A stretch of 64,000 nt of DNA, from the NCBI RefSeq assembly GCF_035084215.1, contig NC_090340.1, positions 42,470,001 through 42,534,000 on the forward strand. The letters are read 5' to 3'. This document shows positions 1 through 64,000 of this stretch, one piece after another. The translations under genes were made by a program, and so were the position numbers. Each line of letters begins with the position of its first letter. Within the stretch, counting starts at the first letter, position 1. Source of the DNA: Heptranchias perlo. Its lineage: Eukaryota. The notes under the pieces are model-generated. The model was not told where the DNA came from and ran no database searches. It worked only from the letters and a program-made list of their open reading frames with translations.

Positions 1-449
1 CATGAGAGTTTGCCATTTAATGGCTCTCCAACTATAATGGCACTTTAAAATATGAATTAAGTAGGGTTTAAAGTATTTTTTTTAATGCAATTCTTGATAA
101 TCTCACTCAAAGCAAAATTGTCTGCTCAGTCAATGTTGCTTCTTTTTAAAAAGTTACTTAAATTTACTTAAGAGTTTGTAGCCAATAAGATACCTGATGA
201 TCTCTGAACACGATTAGGATTTGGCTTAAAATTGCTGCAGACAGCGTTTACAAGAATACAGTACTCAAGTCTGAGAACCTAACAAGCAAAGGACTGCAGT
301 TACACTATCAACTTTTATATCCAAATAATTCTATGCATCACCTCTTCTCATTCCTGGCTGAGTTGGGTAAACTGCCTTTTGTTTTGCAATGCATTATGGC
401 AGGGGGACTATAGGAACATTGGAGGGAGGTATTCCAAACCAGATTATGG

Positions 450-24381
<23,932 letters not shown>

Positions 24382-31886: not shown

Positions 31887-34800
31887 CTGAAAAATATATT
31901 GTCAGGAATATTTGTTTTTGATTTTTCGGGGGGGTGGGGGGGGAAAAGAGGGAGGGAAAGAAAGAAGCAAATTACTAAGTCATCTAGTTGGGAAATTCGG
32001 TGGTATAATGCAACTTCAATCCAGCCCAAAATAAATGGTTGCAATCATTCTTTTGTAAACCTGATGGTGCATTGGGCCACACCTAAAAACAGTCTGGCAT
32101 TGGATCATTCTTCATTTCAATGCTGGTATTAGTAAAGCTTTACAAAAAATAAAAAGTTCAAAACCTAAAAGCAGTTACCATTTATTTTCTTGTTGCCAAC
32201 AACCCTATATGATCCAAGAATACTTGTGGACACCAACAAATAAAATATTTGTTTAACAGTTTTTCCTTTTTCAAACAGAATAGTTTCACACCTACATTAA
32301 AAAGGAGAGTACTTTGAAGTTTGGGACTGTAGCCCCAAAGAATTTGATGCCTCAGCTCCAGGTTTAAAGCTGTGTGTATAAAGATTGTAGTAACAATGGA
32401 AAAACATCCATACAAAACAAAATGTGAACACCATAGAACTTTCTACAGTCTAGTCAACACAAATCACAAATTGTGACCATCAAGATGTAGAATGAAACAT
32501 GTTTTCTCTCTTATAGAAGCAACAAGAACTCCTAGGTCAGATAACCGTTCAGAACTTGCTGCACGTGCACTGCTCCAACAGAATCCATTTGTGCAGTACA
32601 AAATAACTATTTTGTTTCATATATTTTACCATAATGTTCTGGATTTATGTAAGGAATCTTACAACACCAGGTTATAGTCCAACAAATTTATTTTAAAATC
32701 ACAAGCTTTCGGAGATTATCCCCTTCGTCAGGTGAATGGGGATAATCTCCGAAAGCTTGTGATTTTAAAATAAATTTGTTGGACTATAACCTGGTGTTGT
32801 AAGATTCCTTACATTTGTCCACCCCAGTCCATCACCGGCATCTCCACGTTCTGGATTTAAACACAGTAAAATTGATATTTTTAAAAAAAACAAAATCAAT
32901 CATTCACAAACTCCCTCTTTAGCACATACCTGAAGATTAAAATTTGGCAACAAAGATCGAAAGAACAGTGACAAGGTGCTTCCATCTGCTGCTCGATTTA
33001 CCCTGAAAGGAAAATCACTCTAGCTCAGTAAACTCAGAACTCTGAGTCACAGATGAGAAAGCAGGGAAGGTAAGCACAGTAAAAATTTAATAAAAGCAAG
33101 TGCAAATAAATATATAATAACTGAAAATATACATTTGAATAAAATATCTTTATACTCCAATTACAATCAAAATTGTAACTTTACAATCTCAAAATCAATA
33201 GGCTTTCCTTCTGTGTTTATAGAAACTTAAAAATACAAAGGCATTTTCATTCAAATACTATTTCTCATCAGGGATCCAGGTATGTAGGAAATCATCCTTC
33301 TGTAAAAACTACATTGCAGCATGTAATTCCCTCTTGAATGATTTCCAGGGATTTTTTTTTTTGCTTCCACTACCCTATCTGAGTATTCAGGTACTAATCA
33401 CTGTGTGTGAAGAAGTGCTTCCCGACTGTAGTCCTGGACTTGCCCTTTACCAGTTTGTACTCGAGTCCCATTGTCCTGCTTGAAAGTATGTTCTGGATTA
33501 ATCCTTTTCTATTTCACTTAGTATTGTGTATATTGCTATAGGTCCCCCTCATTCACATTCTTTCAAGGCTAAAGAGTCTGGGCTTTGCTAACCTTTCCTC
33601 AATGCAGCCCTCTGATACTAATAATATTTCCAGCAACTAGATATTTCCTTTGTGCTTGGTGACCAGAATTGAATGCAATATCTAAGGTGCAGTCTGACCA
33701 AAGCATGATGAAGCTTTAGCAGGACACCTCATACTTCTACTCTACTGGTCTGGCAATATAGCTCAGCATTCTGTTTGCTGCTCTGCAGTGAGTGGACATG
33801 ATAAGTATTGAGTTTATTACTGCTCCCAAATCTCTTTCAGCCTCTCCCCAGTTGGTTCAACACTGCTGAGTAATTGTCTATTTTTTCTTCCACTGTGTAA
33901 CATCTTGTATTTATCTGTACTGAATTTCACCTGTAACAATTCTGTCCACTTGCAAATTCTGTCAAGGTCCTTCTGTAGTTCCTTAGCTACATCATCAGAT
34001 TCAATTGCTCCCTCCCTCTCCCCCAACCACCAACTTAGCTGAGAATCTGATCAATTTGAATTGTCTTTCTGAAACTAGGTCATTTATGTAGATTAGAAAT
34101 AGCAGGGGGCCCAGCACCAATCCCTGGAGTACTCCACTTAATATATCTCCCTAGCCTGACATGACTCCCCTAACCAGTACCCATTGTTCTCTCTGTCATA
34201 GAATGATACAGCACAGAAGGCCATTCAGCCCAGTGTGTCTGCACTGGCTCTTTGACAGAGTTATCCATTTAGTCCAACCCCCCTGCTCTTTGCCCATAGC
34301 CCTGCAAAATTTTCTCCTTCAAGTATTTATCCAATTCCCTTTTGAAAGTTACTACAGAATCTGCTTCCTCCAACCTTTCAGGCAGGGCATTCCAGATCAT
34401 AATAGTTCATTCTTTATCCACCTCCAAAATTTAAGATTGTGTGACAGCTTTTCCATGTGACACTTATTTGAAGGTTTTCACAAAGCTTAGGTATACTACA
34501 CCAGAGGGCTTTCCAGCATCACCTTGGGATTCCATTTCCTCAAAAAAGTCTGAGATTGGATCTCCCCCTTTAAAACCATACTTGGCTGTCATTTACTAAA
34601 TTTTTCTCAAACAGGAAGCCTTCAAGTTTGCTCCAATATTTTGCTGATTATTGATGGAAGGCAATAGTCTTAAGATAGCAGTCTCTTTGGTCACTTTTTA
34701 AAAAAATTTACGACAATCACTTGTTTCCAATTGAGTGGGACCACAGTTTTTATTCATTGACTCCATCAAAATGATTATTTGCACTTATTAGATTTTGTTT

Positions 34801-37800: not shown

Positions 37801-40800
37801 CGTTAAACACCTACTTGTCCTCAGACTCCTGTACAAGTGGGTCTTTTGCATCTACACGTCTTAAAACCTCCTTCACATTCTCTTCCAGCCATGTCATGAC
37901 TCTTGCTTCTTTCCAGAGCATCCAGTTTCTTCCAATAAATAATGCTACTAACTGCTTCAGAGCACTTGGCTGTCTGTGGGGGGTTGGGGGAGGGGCAGAC
38001 ATAAATGTAGAAGTGAGGTTATGACAAGTGGTATGCAGTAAAATTTAACAGGAATGGAACAAATGGGAATGTATTGTTCAGAAGGATAGGGAAGAAAGAA
38101 TACATAACATTTGCAACACTACATTATATGTCACAGGCCACTCTTTAAGAATCTAGCCCTCATATAAAAACATATTTTTCTCTTCAGATATCAGTTTCTA
38201 TATGTTCTCCATAAATCCCAGTCTACAGAAAGTTAGTAGTGGCAATACCTCAATCATTAATGGTTTGAATTATATTTTGTGCATCATTGGTACAGGCTAG
38301 TAATATTTTTTGCTGATCCCACCTTAAAAGTAGCAGATGCAATAGCAGAATTTCTAATCTATATATAAAAAGTTAAATTGTTAATTGGGTAGGAAGTTAT
38401 TGATAGTTATGAAAATTGCATTTCAACACTCATCATTTGATTTGTTATTCGGTAGTGGGAATAAACTAAATAGTGCCAAAACTAACATTTTGTGTAAAAG
38501 TATCTTGACAATAACACTTCTGATTCTATGCAATTGTTCCTTTCATCTTTAGCAGCAATGATACAGGGAAAACGGTCCACATCATGAGTGATCATTATAT
38601 TTCAATAAATCCAGGTCCAAGTTTCATTACTTGTCTTCGTTCTGGCTTAAGTTTTCCAACACGCTATCATTATTCTGGTAGTAACCTACAAGAAGAAGCT
38701 GGGCAAGAAAGATCAAGCGGCAGCATCCTCTAAAATTAGCAGGTTAGTTCTCAATAGGATTATTTTACTATTGGCACTATTGCTAGGTCTGTTTCAATTT
38801 AGTTAACCAGGCTAATTTGTAGCAAGACAAATAGCACTCCAAATACCCACTGTATTGTGGATTTAAAATTACATTAAATAAGTGTTTCGTCTACATCTCA
38901 TCTTCATTTCAGTTTAATACTTAAAACCAATCTTTTTTTAGACTTGCCATTTTTCTTTAAATTCAAACAACTTATCTCTATCTCCATGCCACACAACTTT
39001 TTTTTATCCTGACTAAATAAAGTCAAATGTGCATACTAGGTTGATGGGATGATGAAAATAAACCTGTAAGTTAATGATTTTACAATCAGCACTACAATCT
39101 CAAGTATATAAAGCAAGGGCTCTTGACAAGTTCCTGTCACTACAAAAGGTGTCAAGATGTCTCCTTCCCTACCTTCAACAAGTTTTGCTAAAACGTATAT
39201 ATTTTATACATTAGTATGCATTATATATTGCGCAACATCTTATAGAAACATAGGAAATAGGAGCGGGGGTAGGCCATTCAGCCCTTCGAGCCTGCTTCAC
39301 CATTCAATATGATCATGGCTGATCCTCTATCTCAATACCATATTCCCGCTCTCTCCCCATGCCCCTTGATGCCTTTTGTGTCTAGAAATCTATTTCCTTC
39401 TTAAATATATTCAGTGACTTGGCCTCCATAGTCTTCTATGGTAGAGAGTTCCACAGGTTCACCACCCTCTGAGTGAAGAAATTTCTCCTCATCTCAGTCC
39501 TAAATGTCCTACCCCATATCCTGAGACTGTGACCCCTTGTTCTAGACCCCGAGCCTGGGGAAACATCCTCCCTGCGTCCAGTCTGTCTAGCCCTGTCAGA
39601 ATTTTATACATTTCAATGAGATCCCTCTCATTCTTCTAAACTCTGGTGAAAGCAGGCCTAGTCGACCCAATCTCTCCTCATATGACAGTCCTGCCATCCC
39701 AGGAATCAGTCTGGTGAACCTTCGCTGCACTCCCTCTATGGCAAGTATATCCTTTCTTAGGTAAGGAGACCAAAACTGCACACAATACTCCAGGTGTGGT
39801 CTCACCAAGGCCCTGTATAACTTCAGTAAGACATCATTGTTCCTATACTCAAATCCTCTTACAATGAAGGCCAACATACCATTTGCCTTCCTAAATGCTT
39901 GCTGCACCTGCATGTTTGCTTTCAGTGACTGGTGTACAAGGACACCCAGGTCCCTTTGTATATCAACATTCCCCAATCTATCACCATTTAAATAATACTC
40001 TGCCTTTCTGTTTTTCCTTCCGAAGTGGATAACTTCACATTTATCCACGTTATACTGCATCTGCCATGTCTTTGCCCACTCACTCAACTTGTCTAAATTG
40101 CCTTGAAGCCTCTTTGCATCCTTCTCACAACCCAACCTAGTTTTGTGTTGTCAGCAAACTTGGAAATATTATATTTGGTTCCCTCATCCAAATCACTGAT
40201 ATATATTGTGAATAGCTGGGACCCAAGCACTGATCCCTGCAGTACCCCACTAGTCACCGCCTGCCACCCTGAAAAAGACCCATTTATTCTTACTCTGTTT
40301 CCTGTCTGTTAACCAATTTTCAATCCATGCTGGTATATTACCCCCAATCCCATGTGCTTTAATTTTGCACACTAACCTCTTGTGTGGGACCTTATCAAAA
40401 GTCTTCTGAAAATCCAAATACACCACATCTACTGGTTCTCCCTTATCTGTTCTACCAGTTACATCCTCAAAAAAACTCAGTAGGTTTGTCAAACACGATT
40501 TCCCTTTCATAATTCCATGTCTATTTTGTCTAATCCCGTTGATATTTTCTACATGTCCTGTTATCACATCCTTTATAATAGACTCTAGCATTTTCCCTAC
40601 TGATGTCAGGCTAACTGGTCTGTAGTTCCCTGTTTTCTCTCTTCCTCCTTTTTTAAATAGTGGGGTTACATTTGCCACCCTTCAATCCGCAGGAACTGTT
40701 CCATAATCTATAGAATTTTGGAAGATGACAACCAATGCATCCACTATTTCCATGGCTACCCCTTTTAGTACTCTGGGATGCAGATTATCAGGTCCTGGGG

Positions 40801-43800
40801 ATTTATCGGCTTTCAGTCCCATTAATTTCTCCAGCACTATTTTTTTTTTACTAATACTAATTTCCTTTAATTCCTCCTTCTCACTAGACCCTTGGTTCCC
40901 TAGTATTTCTGGGAAGTTATTTGTGTCCTCTTCCGTGAAGACAGAACCAAAGTATTTGTTTAATTGCTCTGCCATTTCCTTGTTCCCCATTATAAATTCT
41001 CCTGTTTCTGACTGTAAGGGACCTACATTTGTCTTCACTAATCTTTTTCTTTTTACATACTTGTAGAAGCTTTTACAGTCCTCTTTTATGTTCCTTGCAA
41101 GTTTACTCTCTCACTCTATTTTTCCCCCTCTTAATCAATCTCTTAGTCCTTTTTTGCTGAATTCTAAACTGCTCCCAATCCTCAGGCTTGCTACTTTTTC
41201 TGGCAACTTTAAAGGACTCCTCTTTGGATCCAATACTATTCTTAATTTCTTTTATTAGCCATGGTTGGGCCGCTTTTCCTTTTGCGTTTTTGTGCCAGAA
41301 AGGAATGTATAACTGTTGCAATTCATGCATTCATTCCTTAAACGTTAGCCAATGCCTATCCACTGTCATGGCTTTTAATGAAGCTCCCCAATCTATCACA
41401 GCCAACTCACTCCTCATACCTTTGTAGTTTCCTTGGTTTAGATTTTGGACCCTAGTTTCAGATTGGACGACTTCACTTTCCATCTTAATGAAGAATTCTA
41501 TCATGTTATGGTCACTCTTGCCTAAAGGACCCTGCACAACAAGATTATTAATTAACCCCTTCTCATTGCACAATACCCAATCTAGGATAGCCTGTTCCCT
41601 TAGTTGGCTCCTCAACGTACTGGTCTAAAAAACCATCTCATACACACTCCAGGAATTCATCCTCCACAGTATTATTGCTCATTGGGTTTGGCCAGTCTAT
41701 ATGTAGATTAGTCATCCATGATTACTGTAGTACCCTTGTTACATGCATCTCTAATTTCCTGTTTGATGCCATCCCCTACATTACCACTATTGTTTGGAGG
41801 CCTATAGACAACTCCCACCAGTGTTTTGTGCCCCTTGGTGCTTCTTAACTCCACCCAGACTAATTCCACATCTTGATTTTCTGAGCCAATATCCTTCACT
41901 AACAATGCTACCCCCACCTCCATTTCTTTTTTGCTTGTCCTTCCTAAACATTGAATATGGTTGGACATTCAGCTCCCAGTCTTGGTCACCTTGCAGCCAT
42001 GTCTCCATATTCACAATTATATTGTATCAGTTTACATATGTTTGCACTGTTAATTCGTCTACCTTATTATTAAGAATGTAAACAATTTTACACCATGTTA
42101 TAGTCCAACAATTTTATTTGAAATTCACAAGCTTTCGGAGGCTTGTGATTTTCAAATAAAATTGTTGGACTATAACTTGGTGTTGTAAAATTGTTTACAA
42201 TTGTCAACCCCAGTCCATCACCGGCATCTCCACATCATTATTAAGAATGCTTCGTGCATTCAGATACAGTGCCTTTAGTTTTGTCTTTTCAACATTTTTA
42301 GACATCTTAACATTTTTTTGTACTATGGCCCTATTTGTCTTACTATCATTTTTTCTTACCAGGACTCTATTTGTTAGTACACTTATAATCAATTTAAAAT
42401 TATCTCCCATGTTAGCTGACCTCCTAAATCAAATCAAGCCATGCTGGCTGTTCCAAATGACAGCCCTGTGAAACTTCCACAATCATAGCGTATGCTGCAC
42501 AGGAAGTTGTTGAATATAACATTTATTGCACTAGTGAAAGAATGCAATGCACCAGTGAGTTGTAGAGATTTCCTTCACATGTGAAACAAACAACTTCCTA
42601 CGTGATATTCTCATTTAATGATGTATGTCTTTGACTTCTATTTTGTTTGAAATTTTCCTTTTAGCTATGAAGTTTTACTATTTCTTCCGCAGAGCAAAGT
42701 TCTATGAGTAAATCCACGTACTCTTAGTGGCAGTCATCAACACTGATTCTGTGGTGTGCTAGTGAGTAGTTGCTCAAGTGTCCATACTCTTGCACACAAG
42801 AGATGACACAAAACTTGGAAGTGTCGGGAACAGTGAGGAGGATAGTGATAGACTGCAAGAGGATGTAGACAGGCTGGTGGAATGGGCGGACATGTGGCAG
42901 ATGAAATTTAACACCGAAAAATGCGAAGTGATACATTTCGGTTGGAAGAATGAGGAGAGGCAAGATGAACTAGAGGGCACAATTCTAAAAGGGGTACAGG
43001 AACAGAGAGATCTGGGGGTACATGCATAAATCGTTGAAGGTGGCAGGGCGGGTTGAGAAAGTGGTTAAAAAAGCATACGGGATCCTGGACTTTATAAATA
43101 GAGGCATAGAGTACAAAAGTATGGAAGTCATGATGAACCTTTATAAAGCACTGGTTCGACCACAACTGGAGTATTGTGTCCAGTTCTGGGCACCGCACTC
43201 TAGGAAAGATGTGAAGGCCATAGAGGGTGCAGAAGAGATTTACTAGAATGATTCCAGGGATGAGGGATTTTAGTTACATGGATAGACTGGAGAAGCTGGG
43301 GTTGTTCTCCTTGGAACAGAGAAGGTTGAGAGGAGATTTTATAGAGGTATTTAAAATCATGAAGGGTCTAGGCAGAATAGAGAGAGAGAATCTGTTCCCA
43401 TTGGCAGAAGGGTCACAAACCAGAGGACGTAGATTTAAGGTGATTCGCAAAAGAACCAAAGGTGACATGAGGAAAAGCTTTTTTACGCAGCGAGTGGTTA
43501 GGATCGGGAATGCACTGCCAGAGGGGGTGGTGGAGGCAGAGGCAGACTCAACCGTGGCTTTCAAAAGGGAACTGGATAAGTACTTAAAAAGGAAAATATT
43601 TGCAGGGCTATGGGGATAGGACAGGAGAGTGGGACCGACTAGCTGGATTGCTCTTGCATAGAGCCGGCACGGACTCAATGGGCCGAATGGCTTCCTTCTG
43701 TGCTGTAACCTTTATGATTCTATATTCCAGCTGATTAGAACATGGCAGAAAGAACTATTTCAATCCATTTTATTTTGGTTTAGTGAGTTAGCGGTGAAGG

Positions 43801-46800
43801 ACAACAGGTATATTTATACAGTTACACGTATAGTATTTACATAGAGGACACAGTGAGCAAGAGTGGTAGTTAGTCAGTACTGATGGCAAGTGCACAGCTT
43901 CCTTGTTCCAACTGCTGGTCGAAAGCAATTCTAATCAGGTCATTATCTTATGTGCACAGAATTTATTAGTACTCAAGCAGATTCTTTCATGGCACATACC
44001 TTATTTGCACTTCAAATCCAAAAAACTTGTGAGACAACACAGCCTGGTCAGCCTGCACACCACACTGATCCAGTAATGGCATCAGTACTGGAAATGAATA
44101 CAAATAAGAGCTCATCACTTAATGTTTTTGACAAGGCATTATTATTTTCTATTAAAAAGGGGGCGGTTTCTGGACACACTTGTTAACTGAAACAATATCA
44201 GTAAAAATAAAAACATGAAATAGTTGCTTAATCCTATTGTGGCAATATATTACTAACCTATCACCAAGAGAATGGATATGACACTAAATTGCAAATCAAC
44301 ACTGTTGGTCTTAGGCCACAGAACCTGCACTTATCTAATAAATCAAATTTAAAATAAATCCATATTACAATTTTTAAATAAATTTACTTTAAGCTAGATA
44401 GTGAAACCTTTAATTGAAAAATGATTCACTGTCCCCAGTTTTCATATACAAAGCCATTTCTTATACCAATACCATAACTCCCTCTAGTCACTTCCCATAG
44501 CTGTCATTAATTCTGCTCCTGCTTCTCACAGAAGACCAAAGGTCCATTCAGCACTGATCAAATAATTGAGGGAACTGGGCTAAAGCACAGACTCATTATA
44601 TCTCCCAGGCAATTTGTGGACACAAGCATCGTTTGAGCTAGGCAGATGTGAATTAAACCTTCCCCTCAAGACTGATCACATACTAAATCAGCACTAAAAG
44701 GACCTCCAAATTTGTAATAGGCCAATTATACTACACATTTTGGGTTGATGCAAATCCAAAATATTTCTATTAACAGAAACTTAGTATCAATGGGATGTGA
44801 AATCACCTCAACAAATTTCATGTTCTTACATGGTCAGTTTTCACCTTTTTAATGCTACCATCTCTTTGTTAGTGCTCAGATTTAATCAGCAATTCCGTTC
44901 CTATGGCTGGAGTGTGACACAGCCAACACTTTTGAGCATCTCATACCAAGACACACAAGAGTGGCACAGTAATATAATGCATTGCAGCTCTAACATGCTG
45001 CATTCCAGAGCATATATGTGCCTGCAATTCTGGAATCTCAACAGTGATTCCTTGGGAAGATGCTGAACACAGACCAGGCATTTTCACCACAAGCAGTGAG
45101 AAAATATGAGGTTTGGTCACCTCAGGTTGCTAGCAAGTGCGTCAGAACATTAGCAAAGTCCCAGGAGTAGGTCTCCAGCTGTTTTCTTAGCTAGGCAGAA
45201 GAAAATCGGGGGAAGCATTCCCACCCCCACCCAACCACCTCTTCCTCACAAAAAGCACACTATCTATATTGATACAGAAAAGAATACTCCATTATACAAC
45301 TGTGGAATACAATTTTAGTTAGCACCACCACCACAAAAAAAAAATCACAAGAAACTATCTGGAACTGAAGAGGGCAAGTTTAAAAAAAATTCAATTGTTA
45401 GGAGGATGCCACTGAGTAAACCTAATCCATGGGTTTCAATGCTAACAAGTGTAGTATATAACGCCAGTATATAAGACACCGCATCCTCCCCACATATCAA
45501 ATCATGCAATGCTGGCTATAAGCATCACATCAAATTATTGCATCAGTTAAGGACTACGTGTTCTCATGCCGACTTTATGTAAGTGCACAGTTTTGTATAG
45601 AACATCTATATGTTCAGTACAAATCTTTCTGCTCACCACTAAAAAGGATAAGTTTTGAAGTTTGACATGCATTACATCTGTATAGTTTGTCACATATCTT
45701 TCTTTTGCATCTTATATAATAAACACAGACAAGGTCAAGAATGATTATTTAACAGAGTTTTTAAACAAGAAACAAATCATCGTCCTTAATGTAGGTATTT
45801 TAATTGCCAATACATGCCTCATCTTCCCATTAAATTGGTAATTGCACGTTTATAAAAAGGATGGCAGGGAAGATTGGCACTGAACATGTTCTAAAGGAGA
45901 CATCTTTAATATATAGCTATTGAAATTCTCAGTTGAAGTACAAGGTGAACATTTGACTACTTACCACTTGGAAACGCTATAAGAGCATTTTGTATCAGAC
46001 GCTTAGCTCGTTCCTGTTTTTGAGTGCGCTCAGTATCTGACAGATCTTCTCGTTGACTAAGATGGTAATAAGCCAGTGGAACGGAGAATGCAAAATTAGG
46101 GAGCTGAGACAGATTCAAATGGAACTGAGAGACAGCAGAAAGGAATGAGACATTACTGACAAAATTAAGTCCAAACATGAAACATACAAACACCCAATTG
46201 CATCCAAGAGCTACAAATCACTGTTGCTATATCCTTTTGAAAATATTTTTTTCCTTTTGTGAAAAATTAACTCGTTGGGATTCAATTGACTACACATAAT
46301 GCAAATAGATTTCATATATTCACATTATTAAAAGGAGAAATTACTTAAGTTTTCATATTTTTACTGCATACAACCAGGATAAAAGTTGTATTTTATTTTT
46401 CCTGTAGTCACTTGTACTCAATGCTGATCCACTCACTTGAGTAGAATGGGTGTGCATGTATGATGCTATTATTGCAAAATTAAAGTTCAAGCACTGATCT
46501 TGCTCTATTCAGTGCCATGTTTCCCAAAAAGAATGAGATCTCCACAAAGCACCCCTCCCCTGAGCTAGGAATGGGACAAAAGGGTTGAGAAGGAAAAAAA
46601 AAAGTTAGCCAGTATTTCCATTCCTGATCACTACCTAGTTTATTCCACTGGAAAGGGCATGTATTTTGATATTGGGTGAAGACACAATCAAACTTGGCTA
46701 CAATGCCCCAAAAGGTCAAATACCCTGCCAATGCTCACATTTGAGCAAGCAACCGCAGGGTAGTAGACACCCATAGAATTGCACTCCAGAACAGTGAACA

Positions 46801-49800
46801 TCTTTAGGATGGGGGGGGGGGGGGGGGGGCGGAAATAAACAGTAAGCACTTTTGCCAAAACATTTTAGTCTTGTCACCTGTTTTTTATTTCAATATAAAA
46901 TCAAAACTGTAACAAGCAAACCAATCATGGACACGTTCTCACCTCCCATTCCTCATAGAGCCGTATCAGGAAAGCATATTCTCGTGCTCGCAATGCCAAT
47001 AAATCAATAATCAACAGAGCACATAGTGGATCTCCCTCAGGGTCCAGGCTATGGAGACAAACATTATGAATTAGACTGTACACAGAATTAGAGCAATATT
47101 TATTAAGCCAAATTTCCTAGTGTATGATTTTCAATTAGTGCACAAGATTTCATATTTCCCAAAGCCTTATTAGTTCATTTAGTTCACGTCCAGCTGGTTG
47201 AGTTTGAAAACGTCTATTTTAAAAAATAAATTTATCTTCTCCTTTTGGTGCCATTGAAGTACATTTAGGTACTATGGAAGAGAGCAATTTAAGAGTGGCT
47301 TGACAGTAATCATAAGCTGATTTAATATTCAATTTTTTTTTGAGGCCTGACCTAGGTTGAAGGAGGAGGTGGACTCTTTAAAACTGATTACTGAATTTTC
47401 TTCCCTTTTTGAAGTATGTTTGCAAAACTTATTTTATCAGTTTCTACTGTTAAAAGAGTTTAAGCAAAAGGAATGAGAAAACATTGTATTTAACTATTAA
47501 CATTCTATTAAAAGCAGGTATCAAGGTAACAAAAGGTGGAGCACTGGAGGGATCTCGCTTTCCATTCAGTTTCTAAATTTGTTCAGTTCCAATGACTGAG
47601 AAATGACACAAAGGAACTTCTGATGGGCTTCTGATTGCGAGACTGTTGGTGGCTTGAAAATAGCTCATTCACCTCCATCTTGGCTGCAGGAGGCTCCACA
47701 AAAGAGAAAACAAGTACTACTGAAATGTAGGAGAAAGGAGGGCAGGAGCGTTCATCAGTGTTTACATTTTTGGAGTTAAGATTGAGAAAATCTGCAATTT
47801 TACTCTGCGGTGATTTTGTTCAATGGCTTTATTAGAATAGGCAGCTTGTCGTGACAAAGATTCACATTTTGATACACTTCTCTGTTTAGGAACTGTGGCA
47901 TCATGTTGTTACTTAAATATATATTTTCAATCATTCAAAATGGATTTTTAAACTTCACAGTGCTCCTTCCCTCTGAAGACATTCCTTTCAACACCCATTT
48001 TAAAGTTACTTTTATTTTGCAACAATGAAAAATGGAGGCTAGTGGCAGAGGCATGCAACTTGTGCATTTTCACCTGAAAATTGAATGTGGGGCAGACTGT
48101 AGTAATTTTATAGAAATTTCTTTCTGTCCAGTCAAAAATTTTTATTTGGTGATCTTTCCCTCAATGAACATTTTACCGTCAAAAGGGTGATAAAGTTACC
48201 AATGGTATATATGTCAGCAAGTGATTTCTGATTCTTACCAACGGATAAGCTTACAAAACTCCAGCGCTGTGCGCGGACAGCCCCTTTTCTCCAGAAATAT
48301 CATGTGCTTGTAGAGTGCAAGGAAGAACGACCTGTGCAATTACAAAAAAAGAGAATCTGTGTCAGATAAAGGAAATTAGTGAAGCAGTAAAAATAATCTT
48401 TCCCATGTGGGTGGCTGGATGGGGAAGAGAAAGAAGTGGACTGTGCGATATGCTAAATCAATGGAATTCAACTCTCAAGATATACTTAAGACTGCAAGAA
48501 AATGCATACATAACAAGTGACTGATAATTTTCTCCAACTCAGCTGATGTCAATCATAAATTGCTCATGCCTTGGGGTACAAATACTTTAGTACTATATAT
48601 TATCCAAAAGTTTCAATAGTGACATTAAAAGAATACTTCAAGGAAGGCTCATAAAGATCAGTCAGCCTTCCATTTGTACCTGCCAGTTTTTAAGATCAAA
48701 AATGAGATTAAAACTTGCCTTTGATTAAATTTTTTTTAGGTCCAACATATCTAGACTGTGACAGCCTCTCCCCTGCTTGAGTTCAGTTTCACAGCACTGT
48801 ATGAATGAATGAATGGAACATTGGGTGCTGAATTCAGCACTGTGCAAAGGACCAAGTGAAAGATTACAGCAGTATATTGCTTTCTCATCAAGTCATGCTT
48901 GCATTTTAGTGATATGTTAACAGAGGCAGCAATTCATGTTCACACTGAACTGTTCTGGTAAACCCACAACACTGGCCCTAATTTGTCTCACCAAGAGTTG
49001 TGCTATACTTAAAAATTAATGAGCAAGATTGCCAACTGCAAGCAAAGCATTAAACATATCCCCTCATGTTACTATGGATAACAGGAATGGGATTAGGGTA
49101 GATCAATAGAACAGTGTAGAATTATTTATATGGGTTAAAACAAGAGACTGATTTACTACTGCAATGAACCAATACAAAAAAAAAACTTCTAATGACCCAG
49201 TGAAGAGAAGCTCTCCAAGTGTCAAATTTAATCTTTGTGTGAAGTATGTTGCAAACCTGTTCTCAGCTCGTCGATAATCCAAACGGCTATTTCCATTGGT
49301 CAGGCTAAATACTGGGTGAAATGCACTTTCAAAACAGTACAGTGCTTTTTCTGAATGGAGGAAAGTGAGAAAAAAATAACTTACTAATGCATATAAATAA
49401 TCTTTGGCATATTTGAAAAAACATCCCAACTCTTGTAAGTGACAGGTTAGAATATTTTCCCATGTTATTATAAAGCAATTTTACTTCCAACTTCATAACA
49501 GTGCACCTGGACAGTTCCCCATATTTTGATTTAGTTAGTGCCAGCTGGAAAAATCTGATGAGGTCTTCAAGATTATGAAGGGTAAATAGTGATAGATTGT
49601 TTCCCCTAATTGATGAGACAGTAACAAGAGGGCACAAATTTAAGATGATCACAAAAAGAATTCAAGGGGAGGTTAGAAGAAATTTATTTCCAGAGGCCGG
49701 TTAAAACGTGGAATTCTCTGACACAAAGGGCATGATTTTGACTTGGCGCTGGGAACTCAACCTGTCCCTAGATATTTGCATGGGGAACCCTGAAGCCAAA

Positions 49801-52800
49801 TGAGTGCATCGCAATCTGCGATCGCAACACAATTGAAGGGGAGTATTTGTGCTTCCTGGTTTCCCGCGCGTCGTAAGAAGGGAAAGGAGTCGCAAATCAG
49901 AGAGGGAGCGATCAATCATGGGCCGTGGAACAAAATCGGGGGCGGGGGGGGGATCCAGCAAACATCGGGAGGAGAGTTCAGCCATTATTGGGATTGGGTG
50001 GGGGGGGGGGGGGGGGGGGTGTCCAGCGTCATGAGGTCGAGGCCAATCGCGGGGATCCGATCGACAGGTGAACTTGTTGGGCCTGGATGAAGCACTCCTG
50101 CTCCTCCGGGCACACAAGCAGTGCAATAAAGGCACTCACCTCACGGATCCAGCCCTTCCAGCCTGCTTTCATTTAACGTGAATCGGAAGCAATGGGAAAC
50201 CCGAACAGGTAAGGTTAAATTCATTTTACTTTAGTAATACACAAAAACTTAAGGACCTCAACTATTTCAATGAGGTACATTGCCCTCTAAGTATCGGCCT
50301 GCCAGCTTTAAGTGGGAACGGGACTTCCTGGTGTCTGTTGTGCGCACGCATCCAAATGCGCTTGGGTCAAACCTGGAAGTGGGAGTGTTGAAGCTGGGAT
50401 GTGGTGCTGCTCAAAAAAAGCTATTATTTTAACCTCCCTCCCATCCAGCCACCCCAACCCACCCATTCTTGAGGGTTAAAATTACTCCCAAACTGTTGTT
50501 GAAGCAGAGTCCATAAATTCTTTTAAAAGTGAATTAGATAATTGCTTGGAAAAGAGGAATATTAAAGACCAGGGGGAGTGAGCTGGGCAGGTTTACAAGA
50601 AAAACACCAGTGCAGACTTGTTGGCTGAATGGCTTGTTTTTGGGCTGTAACATTCTACAATTCTATGTCAACTTATGCCCACTGAGCAACTATATTAAAC
50701 CCAACCAATTAATTCACATGCCCTTGAAAGATACAGATAATTTGATTACCACAATTTGCTAATGAACAGTAACTTCAGTCAAGTTAAAATTAATAGACCA
50801 AGAATGATTAACAGCCACAACTTGAAACATCAATAATATTTACAGATAATTCAGTACTTAGAAACATTATTTTATTCAAGACACTGCATTTCTGGCAAGG
50901 TCACCCTGTGGGAAATTGAAGTACAAAGTCCCACAATTAGATTTAGAACACGACTTACGTAACTTTTCATATCAAGTGATTGCATAAACCAATAGCTAGG
51001 AAGCAAGTTCTGAACTCCCAAAAGGGAGACTATTTCAAATCCTGGACTGACAATTGTTTAATAAGGGACGTTTCCCTAATTTCAACCAGGTAAATTGTGA
51101 GAAGCAACCAGGAGAGGCAGATGTAAACAGGCAGGGACTATCCTATCCCCTTGACTGCAGACTAGACCATAGGTGCTACGGACGCATTTTCTTGGGGGCA
51201 AAGGGAGAAAACACTGCTGACTGGTATCATACTATTCCTTTCAATGGATATGCATTCACAATTCTATTTTGAAGTTAAAGCCTGCCTCTCACCAATTAGG
51301 TCACGTGCCATTTCCTGATCCTCTTGCATCCGACAGATGTCACTTAATTGCAATAATGAGTCAATGTGATGCGGGTTGACACGGAGCAGAGCCTAGGGTC
51401 AGGGAAGAACAAATTAGACTGTGTTGGTAGTTACTGATAACTTCTGTTAATTAAAGTGCCCCACCACATGCAACTGTGGCTTGTTGGTGATGACTCGTGT
51501 TTAGTAGAGGATGCAGCTCCTATTCATTTTAGTGAAAGGCACATGCAGTAAGAGGCACTACTAAATGAGAGTTTTCCTGAGGGCTTATTCTCTCCTCCCA
51601 TACAAGAAAATCCAATGCCAACACTTTCTAGAGTCTGGAATTTCCATGAAATCAGAACCCAATCAAATAAAAAAAAGTCTTCAAGTTCTGAAGACCTAGT
51701 TTCATTTAACAGAAAATAAAGCTTTTTAGGCATGGAGTCAGAGGTGGAGGGGAAGGAGAGAAAGAGGGGTGTCCTGGGTCTTTGCGATTTTAATGTTCAC
51801 AGACTGTATTCGCAAACCAAGATTAACACTTTCACTGCCACATCATTACTTTAGGGAGGGACTACAACTTTGAGCAATACTTTTGGAAGTCCGTAAGATA
51901 TAATATAAAGCTCTTATTGGTTAGGTGCTACTGCAATAGTGGCAGGATTGTGTGCCTACCACTAGGATATTTTGACTAGTACAGCATGATCTTTGTGAAA
52001 CAACCTATTTACAAAGAGCTCCTGTGCAACTGGCTGAAAGAATGAGTAGATATGCATTAAATTTAGCCTATATAAAGAATACCTTAGATTTGTTCCAGAC
52101 CCAACAGTACAATCTGTAGATACATAGTGAAATTTTTTTAAAATTTAGACACGAGTTACAACCCACTTTTTTTCTTTCTTACATAAATCAGGCGATTTGA
52201 TTGCCATGTACTTCATTTCTGCTGGTCTAACACAATTAATGACCTACTAAAATGTTATTTGGGTCCATAGAATCTACTGCATCCAAGAACTTGAACTGAG
52301 CCTGTTGATAATCACGGTTGTGTTCAAAGCTGAAGTACTGAGATCCTCCCTTTGTCTCCAGCAGCTGCATGGAAATCCCTGTAAGTGACAAAGCAAGAGT
52401 TAAGTTTTAGATAGATTCTGACTTTGAACACCAATGGTAATGCTAAGGCAATTTGGAGTATTGTGTGTTACATAATGAGATAAAAAAAACATTTTTTTGG
52501 GGGGGTGGTTTAGTGGAAAGGGAAAGAATGATCAAACCTTAAAACAATGCTGGAAACAACGTTTTCTAAAACATACTGGATTCTTTTACTACATAGTTTC
52601 CATTGTTGCACCACTCATATTCCAGTAACTGGGTTGCCATTCACTCTGTTGTCCAGATGTAGCCTGGTTGAATCTGCTCTAAACTGTGCTGCATTACATA
52701 TATATTTACCTGTTTTGGTGTACCGCGGCCAAGTATCTTTGGGTGTTGTGAGCCACGTGCTCCTGTGCAGTGGACGATGCCGCTGCTTTGACCTGATTTG

Positions 52801-55800
52801 AAAGATTTTAAGTGGAAAAAAAAGTAAATACCAAAAGCTTCACATTTCTTAATTCACAATAGTGAAAAATCTTTAGATAAAAAGCACGTAGAATTAAACA
52901 GATTAAGCAGAAATCAAAACTTTAATTGTGGTATTTTCCCCCAGTGCAAATAGGTTATGCAAAAGACACTGAATTGAGAGGAACCAGGTAAGACAAGATT
53001 ATATCATATACTATCACATTTTAAATAGGTTGAAAACAGTGACCGTCTCTTAGTTGACAACACCCGGAGAACACACTAGCTAACCTTTGTTCTCCAAGAA
53101 CTGCTCGGGCCCCAAAGTATCTCTTTAGTTCAGTCTCTGGATTCAGATTCCTGCAGGAAATAAAAAGTTAATTTATGATAAGCAAGAGATAGTGAATATT
53201 AAATAAAAAAGACTTGCATTTATATAATGCCTTTCAAGATCTCAGGATGCTCCAAAGCACTTTGGAAGTACTTTTGAAGCATAGTCACTGTTGTAATATA
53301 GGAAACACAGCAACCAATTTGCATAGCAAGGTCCCACAAACAGCAAAGTGATAATGACAAATAATCTTTTTTAGTGATGTTGGTTAACGGATAAATATTG
53401 GCCTATTCACCAGGGAAACTCCCCTGCTCTTCTTGGAAACAGTGCCATGGGATCTTTTATATCCACCTGGGAGGGAAGATGGGGCCTCGGTTTAATGTCT
53501 CATCCAAAAGACGGCACCTCTGACAGTGCAGCACTTCCTCAGTACTGCACTGGAGTGTCAACCTAGATTTTGTGCTCAAGTCTCTGGAATGGGATTTGAA
53601 CCTTCAACCTTCTGACAAAGGCGAGAGTCCTACCACTAAGCCACAGCTGACACCTAAATTAAATTTTAACCTCAGGTAGTAATTGTTAAGAGACATGAAA
53701 AAGCAACAATATGCACAAATCGATGTTACCAATCTACTAAAATATCAAAAGGCCAAAACTGACGTTACGCCTCCGACATGATAAAAAACGTGGTTTCATT
53801 TCTTACCTATGTTCAACATACAGCAATGGTCTTGATTCTGCACTGAGACTGTGAGTTTGGTAATGGAAACCATTGGGTCTCTCAATCTCTTGTAGAATAC
53901 TATCAATATCATCGGTAGCACCTTCCTGTAAAGAGGACAACCACTTTCTAAGACTTTATAGGACAATTCAACTTTACTTATTGCTAAGACTGAACAGAAA
54001 GGAGGCCTATTCAGGTCTGACATTGTAAGTTCAAAATAGCTTGCAACCAAATAGATTACTTTTTGCACTACAAGCAAACATTACACCCATTTCCCTTTGA
54101 TGATACACTTTTCATAAATAGTTACAGAAAATTGGTTACTTGTAGGAACAGAATTGCAAAGTGCTGGTTAATCATCATTCACAACATCACCTGAGCATCA
54201 ACAGGAGCACTGTTCCGGTTTCTCTTTCTCTTTTTTTTCCGTTTGGGCTTGTTACTTGAATTAGTCTAGGAAGCAAAAAAGAAATCTTTCTTAAAAAGTA
54301 GTCAGTCAATGAAATAGAAACTAATTTTCTATCTTTTACACATAAATATAAAGCAAGATTTGATGTGTAGCAACTAGTTAAACAGTAATGTTCACTGATG
54401 TCCTTTAGGGAAGGAAACCTGTCGTCCTTACCCGGTCTGGCCTATACGTGACTCCAGACCCACAGCAATGTGGTTGATTCTTAAATGCCCTCTGGAACGG
54501 CCTAGCAAGCCACTCAGTTGTACAATCTCACTAAAAAAAAAGTCATAAGAATAAAACCAGACGGACCACCTGGCATCGGACCACTAGGCACCGGACATGA
54601 CAAAGGCAAACTAAGCCCAGTCGACCCTGCAAAGTCCTCCTCACTAACATCTGGGGACTTGTGTCAAAATTGTGAGAGCTGTCCCACAGACTAGTCAAAC
54701 AACAGCCTGGCATAGTCATACTCCCAGAATCATACCTTTCAGCCAACGTCCCAGACTCTTCCATCACCATCCCTGGGTATGTCCTGTCCCACCGGCAGGA
54801 CAGACCCACCAGAGGTGCCAGTACAGTGATATATAGTCAGGAGGAAGTGGCCCTGGGAGTCCTCAACATTGACTCTGGACCTCATGAAATCTCATGGCAT
54901 CAGGTCAAACATGGGCAAGGAAACCTCCTGCTGATTACAACCTACCGCCCTCCCTCAGCTGATGAATCAGTCCTCCTCCATGTTAAACATCACTTGGAGG
55001 AAGCACTGAGGGTAGAAAGGGCACAGAATGTACTCTGGGTAGGGGACTTCAATGTCCATCACCAAGAGTGGCTCGGTAGCACCACTACTGACCGAGCCCT
55101 GAAGGACATAGCTGCCATACTGGGCCTGCGGCAGGTGGTGAGCGAACCAACACGAGGGAAAAACTTACTTGACCTCGTCCTCACCAATCTACCTGTCGCA
55201 AATGTATCTGTCCATGACAGTATTGGTAGGAGTGACCACCGCACAGACCTCGTGGAGACTAAGTCCCGTCTTCGCACTGAGGACACCATCCAACGTGTTG
55301 TGTGGCACTACCACCATGCTAAATGGGATAGATTCAGAACAGATCTAGCAGCTCAAAACTGGGCATCCTTGAGGCGCTGTGGGCCATCAGCAGCAGCAGA
55401 ATTGTATTCCAGCACAATCTGTAACCTCATGGCCCGGCAATTTCTGCACCTCTACCATTACCAACAAGCCAGGGGATCAACCCTGGTTCATGAGGAGTGT
55501 AGAACAGCATGCTAGGAGCAGCACCAGGCGTACCGAAAAATGAGGTGCCAACCTGGTGAAGCTACAACTCAGGACTACATACATGCTAAACAGCGGAAGC
55601 AACATGCTATAGACAGAGCTAAGTGATTCCACAACCAACAGATCAGATCAAAGCTCTGCAGACCTGCCACATCCAGTCATGAATGGTGGTGGACAATTAA
55701 ACGACTAACGGGAGGAGGTGGCTCTGCAAACATCCCCATCCTCAATGATGGCGGAGTCCAGCATGTGAGCGCAAAAGACAAAGCTGAAGCGTTTGCAACC

Positions 55801-58800
55801 ATCTTCAGCCAGAAGTGCCGAGTGGATGATCCAATTCAGCCTCCTCCCGATATCCCCACCATCACAGAAGCCAGTCTTCAGCCAATTCGATTCCCTCCAT
55901 GTGACATCAAGAAACAGCTGAGTGCACTGGATACAGCAAAGGCTATAGGCCCCGACAACATCCCAGCTGTAGTGCTGAAGACTTGTGCTCCAGAACTAGC
56001 TGCGCCTCTAGCCAAGCTGTTCCAGTACAGCTGCAACACTGGCATCTACCCGACAATGTGGAAAATTGCCCGGGTATGCCCTGTCCACAAAAAGCAAGAC
56101 AAATCCAATCCGGCCAATTACTGTCCCATCAGTCTACTCTCAATCATCAGCAAAGTGATGGAAGGTGTCGTTGACAATGCTATCAATCAGCACTTACTCA
56201 CCAATAACCTGCTCACCGATGCTCAGTTTGGGTTCTGCCAGGACCACTCGGCTCCAGACCTCATTCCAGCCTTGGTCGAAACGTGGACAAAAGAGCTGAA
56301 ATCCAGAGGTGAGGACAGTGACTACCCTTGACATCAAGGCAGCATTTGACCGAGTGTGGCACCAAGGAGCCCTAGTAAAATTGAAGTCAACGGGAATCAG
56401 GGGGAAAACTCTCCAGTGGCTGGAGTCATACCTAACACAAAGGAAGATGTAACCTCTGCAAGACATGCCAGATCATCGACACAGATACCACCATCACACG
56501 AGAGGACACCACCCACCAGGTGCATGGTTCATACTCCTGTGACTCGGCCAACGTTGTCTACCTCATACGTTGCAGGAAAGGATGCCACAGAGCATGGTAC
56601 ATTGGCGAGACCATGCAGACGCTGCGACAACGGATGAACGGACACCGCGCAACAATCGCCAAACAGGAGGGTTCCCTCCCAGTCGGGGAACACTTCAGCA
56701 GTCATGGACATTCATCCACCGACCTTCGGGTAAGCGTACTCCAAGGCGGCCTTCGAGACACACGACAACGCAAAATCGTCGAGCAGAAATTGATAGCCAA
56801 GTTCCGCACCCATGAGGACGGCCTCAACCGGGATCTTGGGTTCATGTCACGCTACACGTTACCCCACCAGCGAACAAATGTTATCTGTTTTTAATATAAT
56901 GGGTCATTTGCTGGCTCTCTCTGCCTTCCGGATGTTTCTGCCTCTCTCTGTTTTTTTTTTCTCTGTTTTTTTTCCCTGTTTGTTTTTTTGTTGAATGTGT
57001 ATTCGGGGGTTCTGCAGGTGACACCTCTCTGTCTGAACACGGTGATTGCCTTGGCAACGGGCAGTTGCAGGGGCAGTCTGTAAACACCATGTATTGTTCT
57101 ATATGTATAAATGCGTAGGCTTCAAGGAGCTCTTGAAACATTTGCCTGAGGAAGGAGAAAATCTCCGAAAGCTTGTGAATTTAAAATAAAATTGCTGGAC
57201 TATAACTTGGTGTTGTAAAATTGTTTACAAAGGAAGATGGTAGTGGTTGTTGGAGGCCAATCATCTCAGCCCCAGGGCATTGCTGCAGGAGTTCCTCAGG
57301 GCAGTGTCCTAGGCCCAACTATCTTCAGCTGCTTCATCAATGACCTTCCCTCCATCGTAAGGTCAGAAATGGAGATGTTCGCTGATGATTGCACAGTGTT
57401 CAGTTCCATTCGCAACCCCTCAGATAATGAAGCAGTCCGAGCCCGCATGCAGCAAGACCTGGTCAACATCCAGACTTGGGCTCATAAGTGGCAAGCAACA
57501 TTCGCGCCACACAAGTGCCAGGCAATGACCACCTCCAACAAGAGAGAATCTAACCACCTCCCCTTGACATTCAACGGCATTACCATCGCCGAATCCCCCA
57601 CCATCAACATCCTGGGGGTCACCATTGACCAGAAACTTATCTGGACCAGCCATATAAATACTGTGGCTACAAGAGCAGGTTAGAGGCTGGGTATTCTGTG
57701 GCGAGTGACTCACCTCCTGACTCCCCAAAGCCTTTCCACCATCTACAAGGCACAAGTCAGGAGTGTGATGGAATACTCTCCACTTGCCTGGATGAGTGCA
57801 GCTCCAACAACACTTAAGAAGCTCGACACCATCCAGGACAAAAGCAGCCCGCTTGATTGGCACCCCATCCATCACCCTAAACATTCACTCCCTTCACCAC
57901 CGGCGCACAGTAGCTGCAGCGTGTACCATCCACAAGATGCACTGCAGCAACTCGCCAAGGCTTCTTCGACAGCACCTTCCAAACCCGAGACCTCTACCAC
58001 CTAGAAGGACAAGAGCAGCAGGTACATGGGAACAACACCATCTGCACGTTCCCCTCCAAGTCACACACCATTCCGACTTGGAAATATATCGCTGTTCCTT
58101 CATCATCACTGGGTCAAAATCCTGGAACTCCCTTCTTAACAGCACTGTGGGAGAACCTTCACCACACGGACTGCAGCGGTTCAAGAAGGCGGCTCACCAC
58201 CACCTTCTCAAGGACAATTAGGGATGGGCAATAAATGCCGGCCTCGCCAGTGACGCCCACATCCCATGAACGAATAAAAAAAATACATATTTTGTATTTA
58301 ATGCACATCCATCACACTTGTTACAGGTGCAAAACAATTTTTTTTAAAAAGATTAATTCTTCTGAGCTCAAATAGAATTTACAAGTAACTACAATTGACC
58401 TGAGTTTACAAGGAAATACAATTTACTTGCTTATTCAGACCACTTCCTAATAGGCAGCTCTAAATTGAGCAGTGGCCTTAAAAAGGTGCAGGTAGGGTTA
58501 AACACAGCTCTACCTTCGCATATAAACATCAGTCATGTTCGAGGATACACATGAAGATGCGCCAGTTGTGGTTAAATTTGGCACAATGGAATGAGACAAA
58601 AATGCTTTTTCACGTCTTTTAACAATTACTACTTGAGTTTAAAATTTAATTTAGGTTTCAGCCATGGCTTAGTGGTAGCACTCTCGCCTTTCAGTTATCG
58701 AGTACCACAAACATAGTGAATTCAATCAGATTTAAGGTATTTTTCTATTAAAAGCTGTGCTTGTACAAAAGCAAAAGCTCTACCACACAATTCCTCAATG

Positions 58801-63192: not shown

Positions 63193-63291
63193 ATTTCGAC
63201 ATCGTTCACCTGAGGAAGGAGGAAGCCTCCGAAAGCTTGTGAATTTAAAATAAAATTGCTGGACTATAACTTGGTGTTGTAAAATTGTTTA
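63193..63291 (+). mobile_element. Solo Penelope-like terminal repeat inserted in a degraded L2 tail (about 63120-63527)
   Basis: Near-identical to 9429-9522; imperfect TSD ctaccatcaatg / ctaccataatg. Confidence 0.88.
63204..63244 (+). ncRNA. Minimal type-I hammerhead ribozyme motif
   Basis: gttcac CTGAGGA a ggagg-aag-cctcc GAAA gctt gtgaat. Confidence 0.78.
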
Positions 63292-64000
63292 CTACCATAA
63301 TGGTACAACTTCAGCCATCTCAGCCACACAGACTGGAACTCTGTCCCTAAAATTCTTCTTGCTCCACCCTTCATTCTTCCCCACTTTCAAAGCCTCCACA
63401 AAACCCACCCCTTTGATCCTGCCTTTGGCCACTGCTTCTAATTTTCCCTCCTACTCCAGTCTGACCCCAAATGTGAACCGTCTCGAGATAATGTTCTATG
63501 CTAAAGACACTATATGAATACAAGTTCTTTACTGTCCCCATTTGCTGATGAAAGAGGCAAAGAACTACATTTCATGAAACATAAAACTCCTGAGATTTCA
63601 GGAAAGTGAGCAGGTTGGTAAACTTGTCAATATTCAGATGGAAACAAAAATCTGTAAAACAAAACTGAAAATAAGCAGCTTTCATGGAAAGATTAGAGCA
63701 AGATGATTCATGAAACAGCATCAGCATCTGCAGTTCTCCTCTGGGGGCTTCTGATGAAGCCAAATTTATTACAGAAAAGTTTGTGAAACTTTCACTAGTT
63801 TCACTAGTTGAGAACGTCTCCAAATATGAACGTCTGTAGGCTAAAAGCTTGACCTGAAAGTCTATATGACCATCCTGGTTTCAGCAACTTCGCAGTGGTG
63901 TGGAGCATCAAGGTACAGCTACTGCAGAGATCTGCTAAAAAGCTGATAACTTTGATCACTATGCCTCTATTAGTCAGCGTCATTAGCATCTATTCCCTTT

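Follow-up and report, generated by a model that had tools for sequence, protein, structure and literature searches.

Minimal hammerhead ribozymes (min-HHRs) have been described in the pLTRs of metazoan Penelope-like elements (PLEs) by Cervera and De la Pena (2014, PMC4209133), who report that dimers cleave weakly and the monomer does not; the richest genome of that study holds about 9,000 motifs. The only PLE hammerhead that has been tested together with its protein belongs to the Poseidon element PAc of Anolis carolinensis, and it cut solely upon addition of the protein (Frangieh et al. 2024, PMC11167929). Craig et al. (2021, PMC8557442) describe the Neptune clade of endonuclease-containing PLEs, in which the linker is defined as CX2-5CxxC, and the layout of PLE inverted arms is already known from that work. 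A type I hammerhead akin to those of PLE pLTRs is carried by non-LTR retrozymes, which are reported from a retrozyme/PLE sample that includes one cartilaginous fish (Li et al. 2026, bioRxiv 10.64898/2026.07.22.740005). The role of PLE hammerheads is still open (PMC8557442, PMC11167929). Statements about these sources, here and below, refer to the portions of them that were compared.

The window analysed here is a stretch of 64,000 nucleotides from the shark Heptranchias perlo (NC_090340.1, positions 42,470,001 to 42,534,000, forward strand). It contains four complete copies of a minimal type I hammerhead, of which the one at 57140 is the focal copy:

57140..57180, plus strand: focal copy of the minimal type I hammerhead, found by pattern and fold
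57140-45/57175-80, plus strand: strands of focal helix I
57146-52, plus strand: focal core CUGAGGA, with the extra A at 57153
57154-58/57162-66, plus strand: strands of focal helix II, with GAAA at 57167-70
57171-74, plus strand: focal GCUU; predicted cut between 57174 and 57175
9434-9474, plus strand: full hammerhead in a solo stub (9425..9526, start -44, end +58)
32697-32737, minus strand: full hammerhead in the minus arm of an inverted pair
63204-63244, plus strand: full hammerhead in a solo stub (63193..63292, start -46, end +54)

The cut position, from which signed positions are counted throughout, is a prediction placed by hammerhead numbering, which we take to be established.

A first-pass annotation of the window had proposed these four copies, and a base-for-base check finds each at the position and on the strand that it gave, with helix II strands GGGGG/CCUCC, GGGGA/UCUCC, GGAGA/UCUCC and GGAGG/CCUCC. 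Its description of the core as varying at N alone is likewise borne out (CUGA(C/G)GA in all four), and the extra A, GAAA, GCUU, the downstream AATAAA and a helix III reduced to the palindrome AGCU are present in every copy as it described them. Its claim that helix II covaries among the four copies holds in part: all pairs form, but only pair 5 changes on both sides, the change at pair 3 being one-sided. Folding yields helix I and helix II as the minimum-energy structure of each copy; no window copy is more stable than its shuffled versions (z -0.85 to -1.77 for the four). Helix I of the focal copy contains two G-U pairs, which by sequence comparison are a state common to a subfamily and not decay, and helix I of the copy at 32697 has four contiguous pairs. 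Three further copies in the window are partial, none with a full core: one is the mirror arm (32738-32847), the other two are the arms of the inverted pair at 42077-42236. Searching the window with Rfam covariance models returned no hammerhead family at E<=10. This result does not weaken a functional reading, because minimal forms are without the helix III that is modelled. Hairpin matches of Rfam miRNA models to the inverted pair at 32.7 kb were far under gathering scores and were rejected. The motif is covered by four contig sets from one sample, whose RNA origin is a guess; contigs of this kind cannot show ends, strand or level and were left out of the evidence.

The element that carries the focal motif, and the sequences around the window copies, are laid out as follows:

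56450..57230, plus strand: 5'-truncated PLE copy, comprising the ORF end, a 280-nt 3' UTR, the hammerhead and a tail to the short end
56450..56894, plus strand: C-terminal part of the PLE ORF, with a CX2C linker remnant and GIY-YIG endonuclease (Pfam); stop at 56892-56894
57175..57230, plus strand: first 56 nt of the 92-nt leader, reaching the short 3' end site; AATAAA at 57185-57190
54390..58289, plus strand: older non-LTR retrotransposon (APE endonuclease and RT; Pfam) hosting the PLE insertion
453-638, 3746-3850 and 13372-13503, minus strand: exons of an ATG8/LC3-family gene (Pfam)
36297-52406, minus strand: exons of a TCF25-family gene (Pfam)

The placement of the motif 3' of a GIY-YIG ORF, which the first-pass annotation had used to tie it to a PLE, is supported by a Pfam match to PF01541 (E 8.5e-05; 23.2 bits against a cut-off of 22.6). 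The copy at 56450-57230 (~781-782 nt) is 99.7% identical, with 2 mismatches, to an intact 3,081-bp unit (locus L061), and the peptide of the focal ORF recurs genome-wide at 97-99% identity, in some cases within 918-codon open frames, among the best 150 of 38,968 candidates. Intact 3,081-bp units stand head to tail at retrieved loci. Each encodes a protein of 902 amino acids that begins at an ATG 92 nt beyond the predicted cut site, and 280 nt separate the stop codon from the next predicted cut site. The protein contains an RVT_1 match (E 3e-10), DKG and YIDD motifs, and a C-X4-C-X2-C linker (CHGNLCKTC) that lies ahead of the GIY-YIG in the C-terminal part. The single ORF with a PLE-type RT and C-terminal GIY-YIG is that of an endonuclease-containing PLE. 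Tandem units forming pLTRs, an inverted truncated arm, a 30-40-nt tail and target duplications of variable length complete the PLE layout. The linker motif, which Nematis shares, would assign the element to the Neptune type; this assignment is by motif and not by tree. Of the 120 homologues listed, which include no named Neptune or Nematis reference, the nearest with names are shark proteins (80-96% identity), so the family is common to several sharks; these are followed, in the same set, by turtle and invertebrate proteins at about 43%. One public shark gene model fuses the RT part of the 902-aa protein (96% identity, 29% of the query) with an epsin-2 model, which is probably an annotation artefact.

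Two further features of the carrier deserve mention. At locus L072 (2999-5202), two identical hammerheads are separated by 2,203 bp that contain no long ORF, representing a tandem duplication or a unit with an internal deletion. The AATAAA is retained in 78 of 80 copies. That it works as a poly(A) signal is doubtful: a poly(A) tail is found on 0 of 100 copies, and tandem units read through it.

An uninterrupted relative (90% identical) of the retrotransposon that hosts the focal copy lies on the minus strand at 13941-16994. Three motifs, all on the plus strand, are antisense to the ATG8/LC3- and TCF25-family genes, and the minus-strand motif lies within a 200-nt hairpin; these four cases prove nothing about selection. 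Further likely TCF25 exons, without Pfam support, are found at 35289-35411, 53024-53167 and 53807-53925. The stub at 9425..9526 lies inside a CR1-type LINE, antisense in an intron of the ATG8/LC3-family gene. This LINE (6441-10517) is young, encodes a GDSL-like ORF1 domain, APE endonuclease and RT, and is interrupted by the stub, whose 5' joint carries an inverted copy of target sequence, repeated twice, instead of a clean duplication. A direct repeat of 371 nt (98.7% identical; 6635-7005 and 7688-8055) is present in the first open frame of the LINE.

Genome-wide, an exact pattern that fixes the core and the outer helix II pairs returns 80,517 matches and its reversed control 0, so the four motifs in the window are not due to chance. 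A 19-nt tail pattern that is independent of the ribozyme gives 106,826 matches (control 0). The PLE family is young and very abundant. Longer variants of helix II, sought as a separate form, gave 94 matches, all of them sporadic insertions in this same family.

For an estimate of conservation that avoids circularity, we took a sample blind to the core, namely every tail-anchored copy (100 in total) from the first 4.0 Mb of contig C1. The core is spanned without gaps in 79 of these; truncation affects 20 and an insertion 1. Of the 79, 70 retain all 11 core letters. The positions C3-U4-G5-A6-N7-G8-A9, G12-A13-A14-A15.1 and U16.1 are those of a hammerhead core, with U at H17, whereas N7 is free (G in 48 copies, C in 30, U in 1). 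The commonest losses in the core region among the 79, G12A and C11.1U (5 copies each), fall at one CpG, as would be expected from neutral decay of single copies after insertion. The extra unpaired A after A9 occurs in 79/79, and the AGCU palindrome in 78/79; its GCU is part of the anchor, yet no full copy listed in the interval is without it.

Both helices are retained in this sample. Pairs 1-4 of helix I are formed in 79/79, 77/78, 75/75 and 74/74 copies (305 of 306 cells), and its outer two pairs in 47/69 and 57/65, giving an open helix of 4-6 bp. Pairs 1-4 of helix II, opened by G10.1-C11.1 and thus at least 4 bp long, are formed in 79, 76, 79 and 78 of the 79 copies. Pair 5 is formed in 63 and broken in 16, 15 of which have A-C, so that this pair is optional. 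Changes on both sides are seen at I-4 (UA/CG, 3 copies), at II-3 (AU/GC, 3 copies) and at II-5, where 33 copies have GC, 16 AU and 2 CG. With rare exceptions the inner four pairs of both helices are maintained, by G-U wobbles and by occasional changes on both sides; at II-2, two-sided changes account for only 3 matches genome-wide, none of which gives back a standard pair. Formal counts were made on 33 distinct variants of 47, omitting rows whose 5' side comes from flank or junction; the variant with C-G at pair 5 is absent from this set. Paired cells make up 94%, a level reached in 0 of 500 shuffles and far above all slid controls. Two-sided changes affect 3 pairs, as many as in 66/500 shuffles, and the covariation score is reached by 16/500. 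By these counts the covariation is modest to weak.

The first-pass annotation had also expected the core to be conserved above its flanks. Mean pairwise identity was computed for 38 long copies drawn from several subfamilies. It is 0.96 at the 11 core positions and 0.80-0.84 in the helix strands, falls to 0.74 in loop II and to 0.55 in the spacer upstream, and is 0.91 in the downstream tail. The expectation thus holds relative to the 5' spacer, but compared with the 3' tail the core is only slightly ahead. The sequence pattern that the annotation had named as its refutation is not what these copies show. Since the tail is nearly as conserved as the core, part of this conservation may serve the promoter or recognition by a protein.

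These identities bear on a reading in which the motif is a true descendant of a hammerhead that selection has abandoned, its conservation and apparent covariation merely reflecting the youth of the family. Most copies do belong to a few near-identical subfamilies, and formal covariation is weak. Against it, the adjacent spacer has fallen to 0.55 and acquired indels next to a core at 0.96, and where subfamilies differ in inner pairs the changes retain pairing. We regard this reading as hardly credible. The anatomy of the element, the kept core and the paired helices together uphold the identification of the motif as a PLE-borne minimal type I hammerhead.

The ends of the copies record how they were made. 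Their 3' and target-site features in the window are:

56437..56449, plus strand: target-site duplication, left, 13 bp
57227..57239, plus strand: target-site duplication, right; its first 4 bases overlap the 3' end of the element
32648..32847, both strands: inverted pair; the minus arm with the full hammerhead ends at +55, the plus arm without CUGANGA at +89
42077..42236, both strands: inverted pair with ends of both kinds, short and long, truncated inside the hammerhead so that no catalytic core remains; 13-bp duplication

The focal target duplication is present as a single copy in the uninterrupted relative of the host retrotransposon, at about 14965-14977, and the inverted pair at 32648..32847 is flanked by a 12-bp duplication (32636-32647 and 32848-32859). 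Among 136 copies, 3' ends are bimodal. Counted from the cut site, one group lies at +48..60 (63 copies) and the other at +83..103 (53 copies), and a further 8 copies continue into the ORF. We found 29 inverted pairs, and both arms could be classified in 24. Every one of these 24 pairs one short (~+55) with one long (~+92) arm (p about 1e-7), and in 23 a flank word of 12-15 bp is common to both sides. By analogy, the short and long ends may correspond to the two internal RT start sites and the two-strand priming of the anole element (PMC11167929).

The 5' ends of many copies lie a short way below a TATA-like box, which in the focal copy is placed as follows:

57106..57112, plus strand: TATA-like box TATAAAT, candidate pLTR promoter, 69 nt 5' of the predicted cut

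A box of this kind lies at -65 to -76 in 33 of 38 long copies. Starts fall at -46..-27 in 63 of 137 copies, at -59..-47 in only 4 and at +1 in 0. They track the box in two subfamilies, one with TATA at -75 and starts at -44..-46, the other with TATA at -69 and starts at -39; in one subfamily they scatter from -38 to -49 and do not track it. From these positions we infer an RNA start about 30 nt 3' of the TATA-like box. Genome-wide, 61 starts fall at +1, the cut site, against 42 at +3 and 48 at -8, an excess that is weak at best (one-sided p 0.04, with two control positions only). Thirty of the 61 loci were inspected; 13 proved to be fold-back junctions, and small deletions or duplications explain a few more. 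By eye, no peak at +1 is seen among the first 100 of 572 short-start matches (9 rows). Because starts pile up upstream without a clear excess at the cut site, the templates were likely mostly uncut RNA.

The model of Cervera and De la Pena, in which efficient cutting frees unit-length RNA that is ligated into circles and these template tandem insertions (put forward in PMC4209133), finds some encouragement here in the exact 3,081-bp head-to-tail tandems. These tandems are explained without circles by read-through of tandem loci, and the model sits poorly with the starts of the 137 copies, which cluster upstream of the ribozyme, have an abrupt limit near -46 and in no case fall at +1. Full-length ORF copies, moreover, start at various places. 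We therefore judge the circular route very improbable for this element.

As AGCU is too short to include a loop, helix III can form only with a second motif, either in the next unit 3.08 kb away or in another RNA. The double hammerhead is a sterically nested structure that is 7-9 kcal/mol less stable than the best predicted dimer, in which helix II strands are exchanged and AGCU stays single-stranded. In such models, this gap would be in line with the weak dimer activity (PMC4209133) and the protein dependence (PMC11167929) of known PLE hammerheads. We consider it probable that the pLTR hammerhead of this Neptune-type PLE cleaves after GAAAGCUU, slowly, when paired with a second motif via AGCU, and probably with help from the protein of the element.

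The life cycle that we propose around it is conditional throughout. Transcription directed by the TATA-like box would begin about 35-46 nt 5' of the cut. A start upstream of the cut means that a transcript has one hammerhead at its 5' end plus one for each further unit. Priming of reverse transcription would occur within the RNA, near +55 and near +92; in inverted insertions each cut target strand would use its own priming site, and the template would mostly be uncut RNA. Priming on the first repeat would run off at the RNA start and leave stubs of roughly 100 nt, which make up much of the family. Selection on the motif would act only on the few active master elements, the dispersed copies being passengers. 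It is tentatively possible, and we offer it as speculation, to view the ~100,000 copies as a fossil record of the PLE reaction. The TATA-driven RNA would begin at the hammerhead, +55 would prime first and +92 second, and only uncut RNA would be copied. On this view the ribozyme would not make templates but act as a switch, gated by dimerisation or by protein: in clipping off the first, capped 40 nt it would withdraw the RNA from copying (or alter its translation).

Several of the same observations would be accounted for by a hammerhead-derived motif with practically no cutting in the cell, maintained for its structure where the RNA begins, either to serve the promoter or to be bound by the protein of the element. 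The genomic starts bear no clear footprint of cleavage, the motif lies directly below the inferred RNA start site, and the tail is conserved to a similar degree. Insertion of the anole element in vitro is unaffected by catalytic mutants (PMC11167929), and Naiad PLEs thrive without canonical hammerheads (PMC8557442). On the other hand, the catalytic letters are precisely those retained, with N7 free, and unrelated families in the same genome have the same core with other helix II sequences and other palindromes. The anole hammerhead, furthermore, does cut and is rescued by the double change C3G/G8C (PMC11167929). We think a purely structural role unlikely and favor slow, gated cleavage.

Apart from this family, a search with other palindromes gave 644 matches, and 85 of the 100 matches listed belong to one unrelated PLE family. 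None of the 85 is more than about 1 Mb from a contig end (C1, C4, C5, C9; also C6, C7, C8, C10; loci L166-L177 and L180). This subtelomeric PLE forms tandem units of 7.7-8.3 kb and has a minimal hammerhead with the palindrome ACGU. Its ORF1 (754 codons) is proline-rich with a weak GDSL match below cut-off, and the overlapping ORF2 (744 codons) encodes RT, CX4CxxC and GIY-YIG. Degenerate CCCTAA is present in the 3' region, and telomeric arrays stand at truncation joints in one orientation. The element is 33% identical to the PLE with 3,081-bp units and has many relatives at 46-65%, two of them named from bony fish. To judge from its sequence, it looks like a telomere-repeat-associated, endonuclease-containing PLE with two ORFs. 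No description of such a PLE in vertebrate subtelomeres was found in the literature searched; PLEs beside telomere-like repeats are reported from sturgeon in the portion of PMC12031113 consulted. Its novelty may be greater than that of the hammerhead PLE in the window. Older hammerheads account for the remaining 15 of the 100 matches listed; they are scattered, have the ACGU palindrome, vary in helix II and are probably what is left of further PLE families. Among telomeric arrays on contig C4 (L169:1154-9793, within 141812000-141821999) lies a tandem repeat of 293 bp that carries a hammerhead core of its own, with 27 motifs in 10 kb; it would represent a retrozyme-like subtelomeric satellite.

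In comparing the shark motif with the min-HHRs of PMC4209133, we find the same CUGANGA, unpaired base before helix II, G10.1-C11.1, GAAA and palindromic 15.2/16.2 positions without loop 3, together with an AU-rich 3' flank, a pLTR location and many solo copies. The turtle (Chrysemys) motif of that study has the same GAAA-GC-U-U. Cartilaginous fish are absent from the portion of its alignment compared, and one of its supplementary files has 0 matches for shark, Callorhinchus, Squalus or Leucoraja. The non-LTR retrozymes of bioRxiv 10.64898/2026.07.22.740005 are short tandem non-coding repeats. The four window copies, by contrast, arose by truncation of an autonomous element and lie dispersed; this dispersal, their coding source and their ends in the PLE tail led us to reject a retrozyme identity. 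No description of a hammerhead PLE from a shark was found in the literature searched; the supplements of that preprint may list the family.

The closest likeness in architecture is to Neptune (PMC8557442), with which the shark element shares the single ORF, the RT, the CX2-5CxxC linker and the C-terminal GIY-YIG, as well as partial tandems, an inverted 5'-truncated arm, a tail at one end and a hammerhead in the pLTR. Clear target duplications of 12-15 bp are the rule in the shark PLE. PAc belongs to another clade and has the same tandem pLTR-ORF layout with a hammerhead near the ORF start (PMC11167929). Its two internal RT start sites that set a 30-40-nt tail, its cutting and extension of both target strands and its uncut RNA template are the features to which we liken the shark PLE. 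The two differ in detail: in PAc the ATG lies inside the hammerhead and RT starts 111-118 nt into the ORF, whereas in the shark PLE the ATG lies 92 nt past the cut and the copies end in the leader (+55) and at the ATG (+92).

The combination of a PLE with a hammerhead is thus already published, and what this family adds is a host lineage and a high copy number, 80,517 motifs against about 9,000 in the richest genome of PMC4209133. Tens of thousands of junctions let the RNA start, the priming sites and the absence of a cleavage footprint be read. With intact, near-identical tandem masters and natural helix variants, the shark PLE makes the role of the hammerhead testable with a single element.
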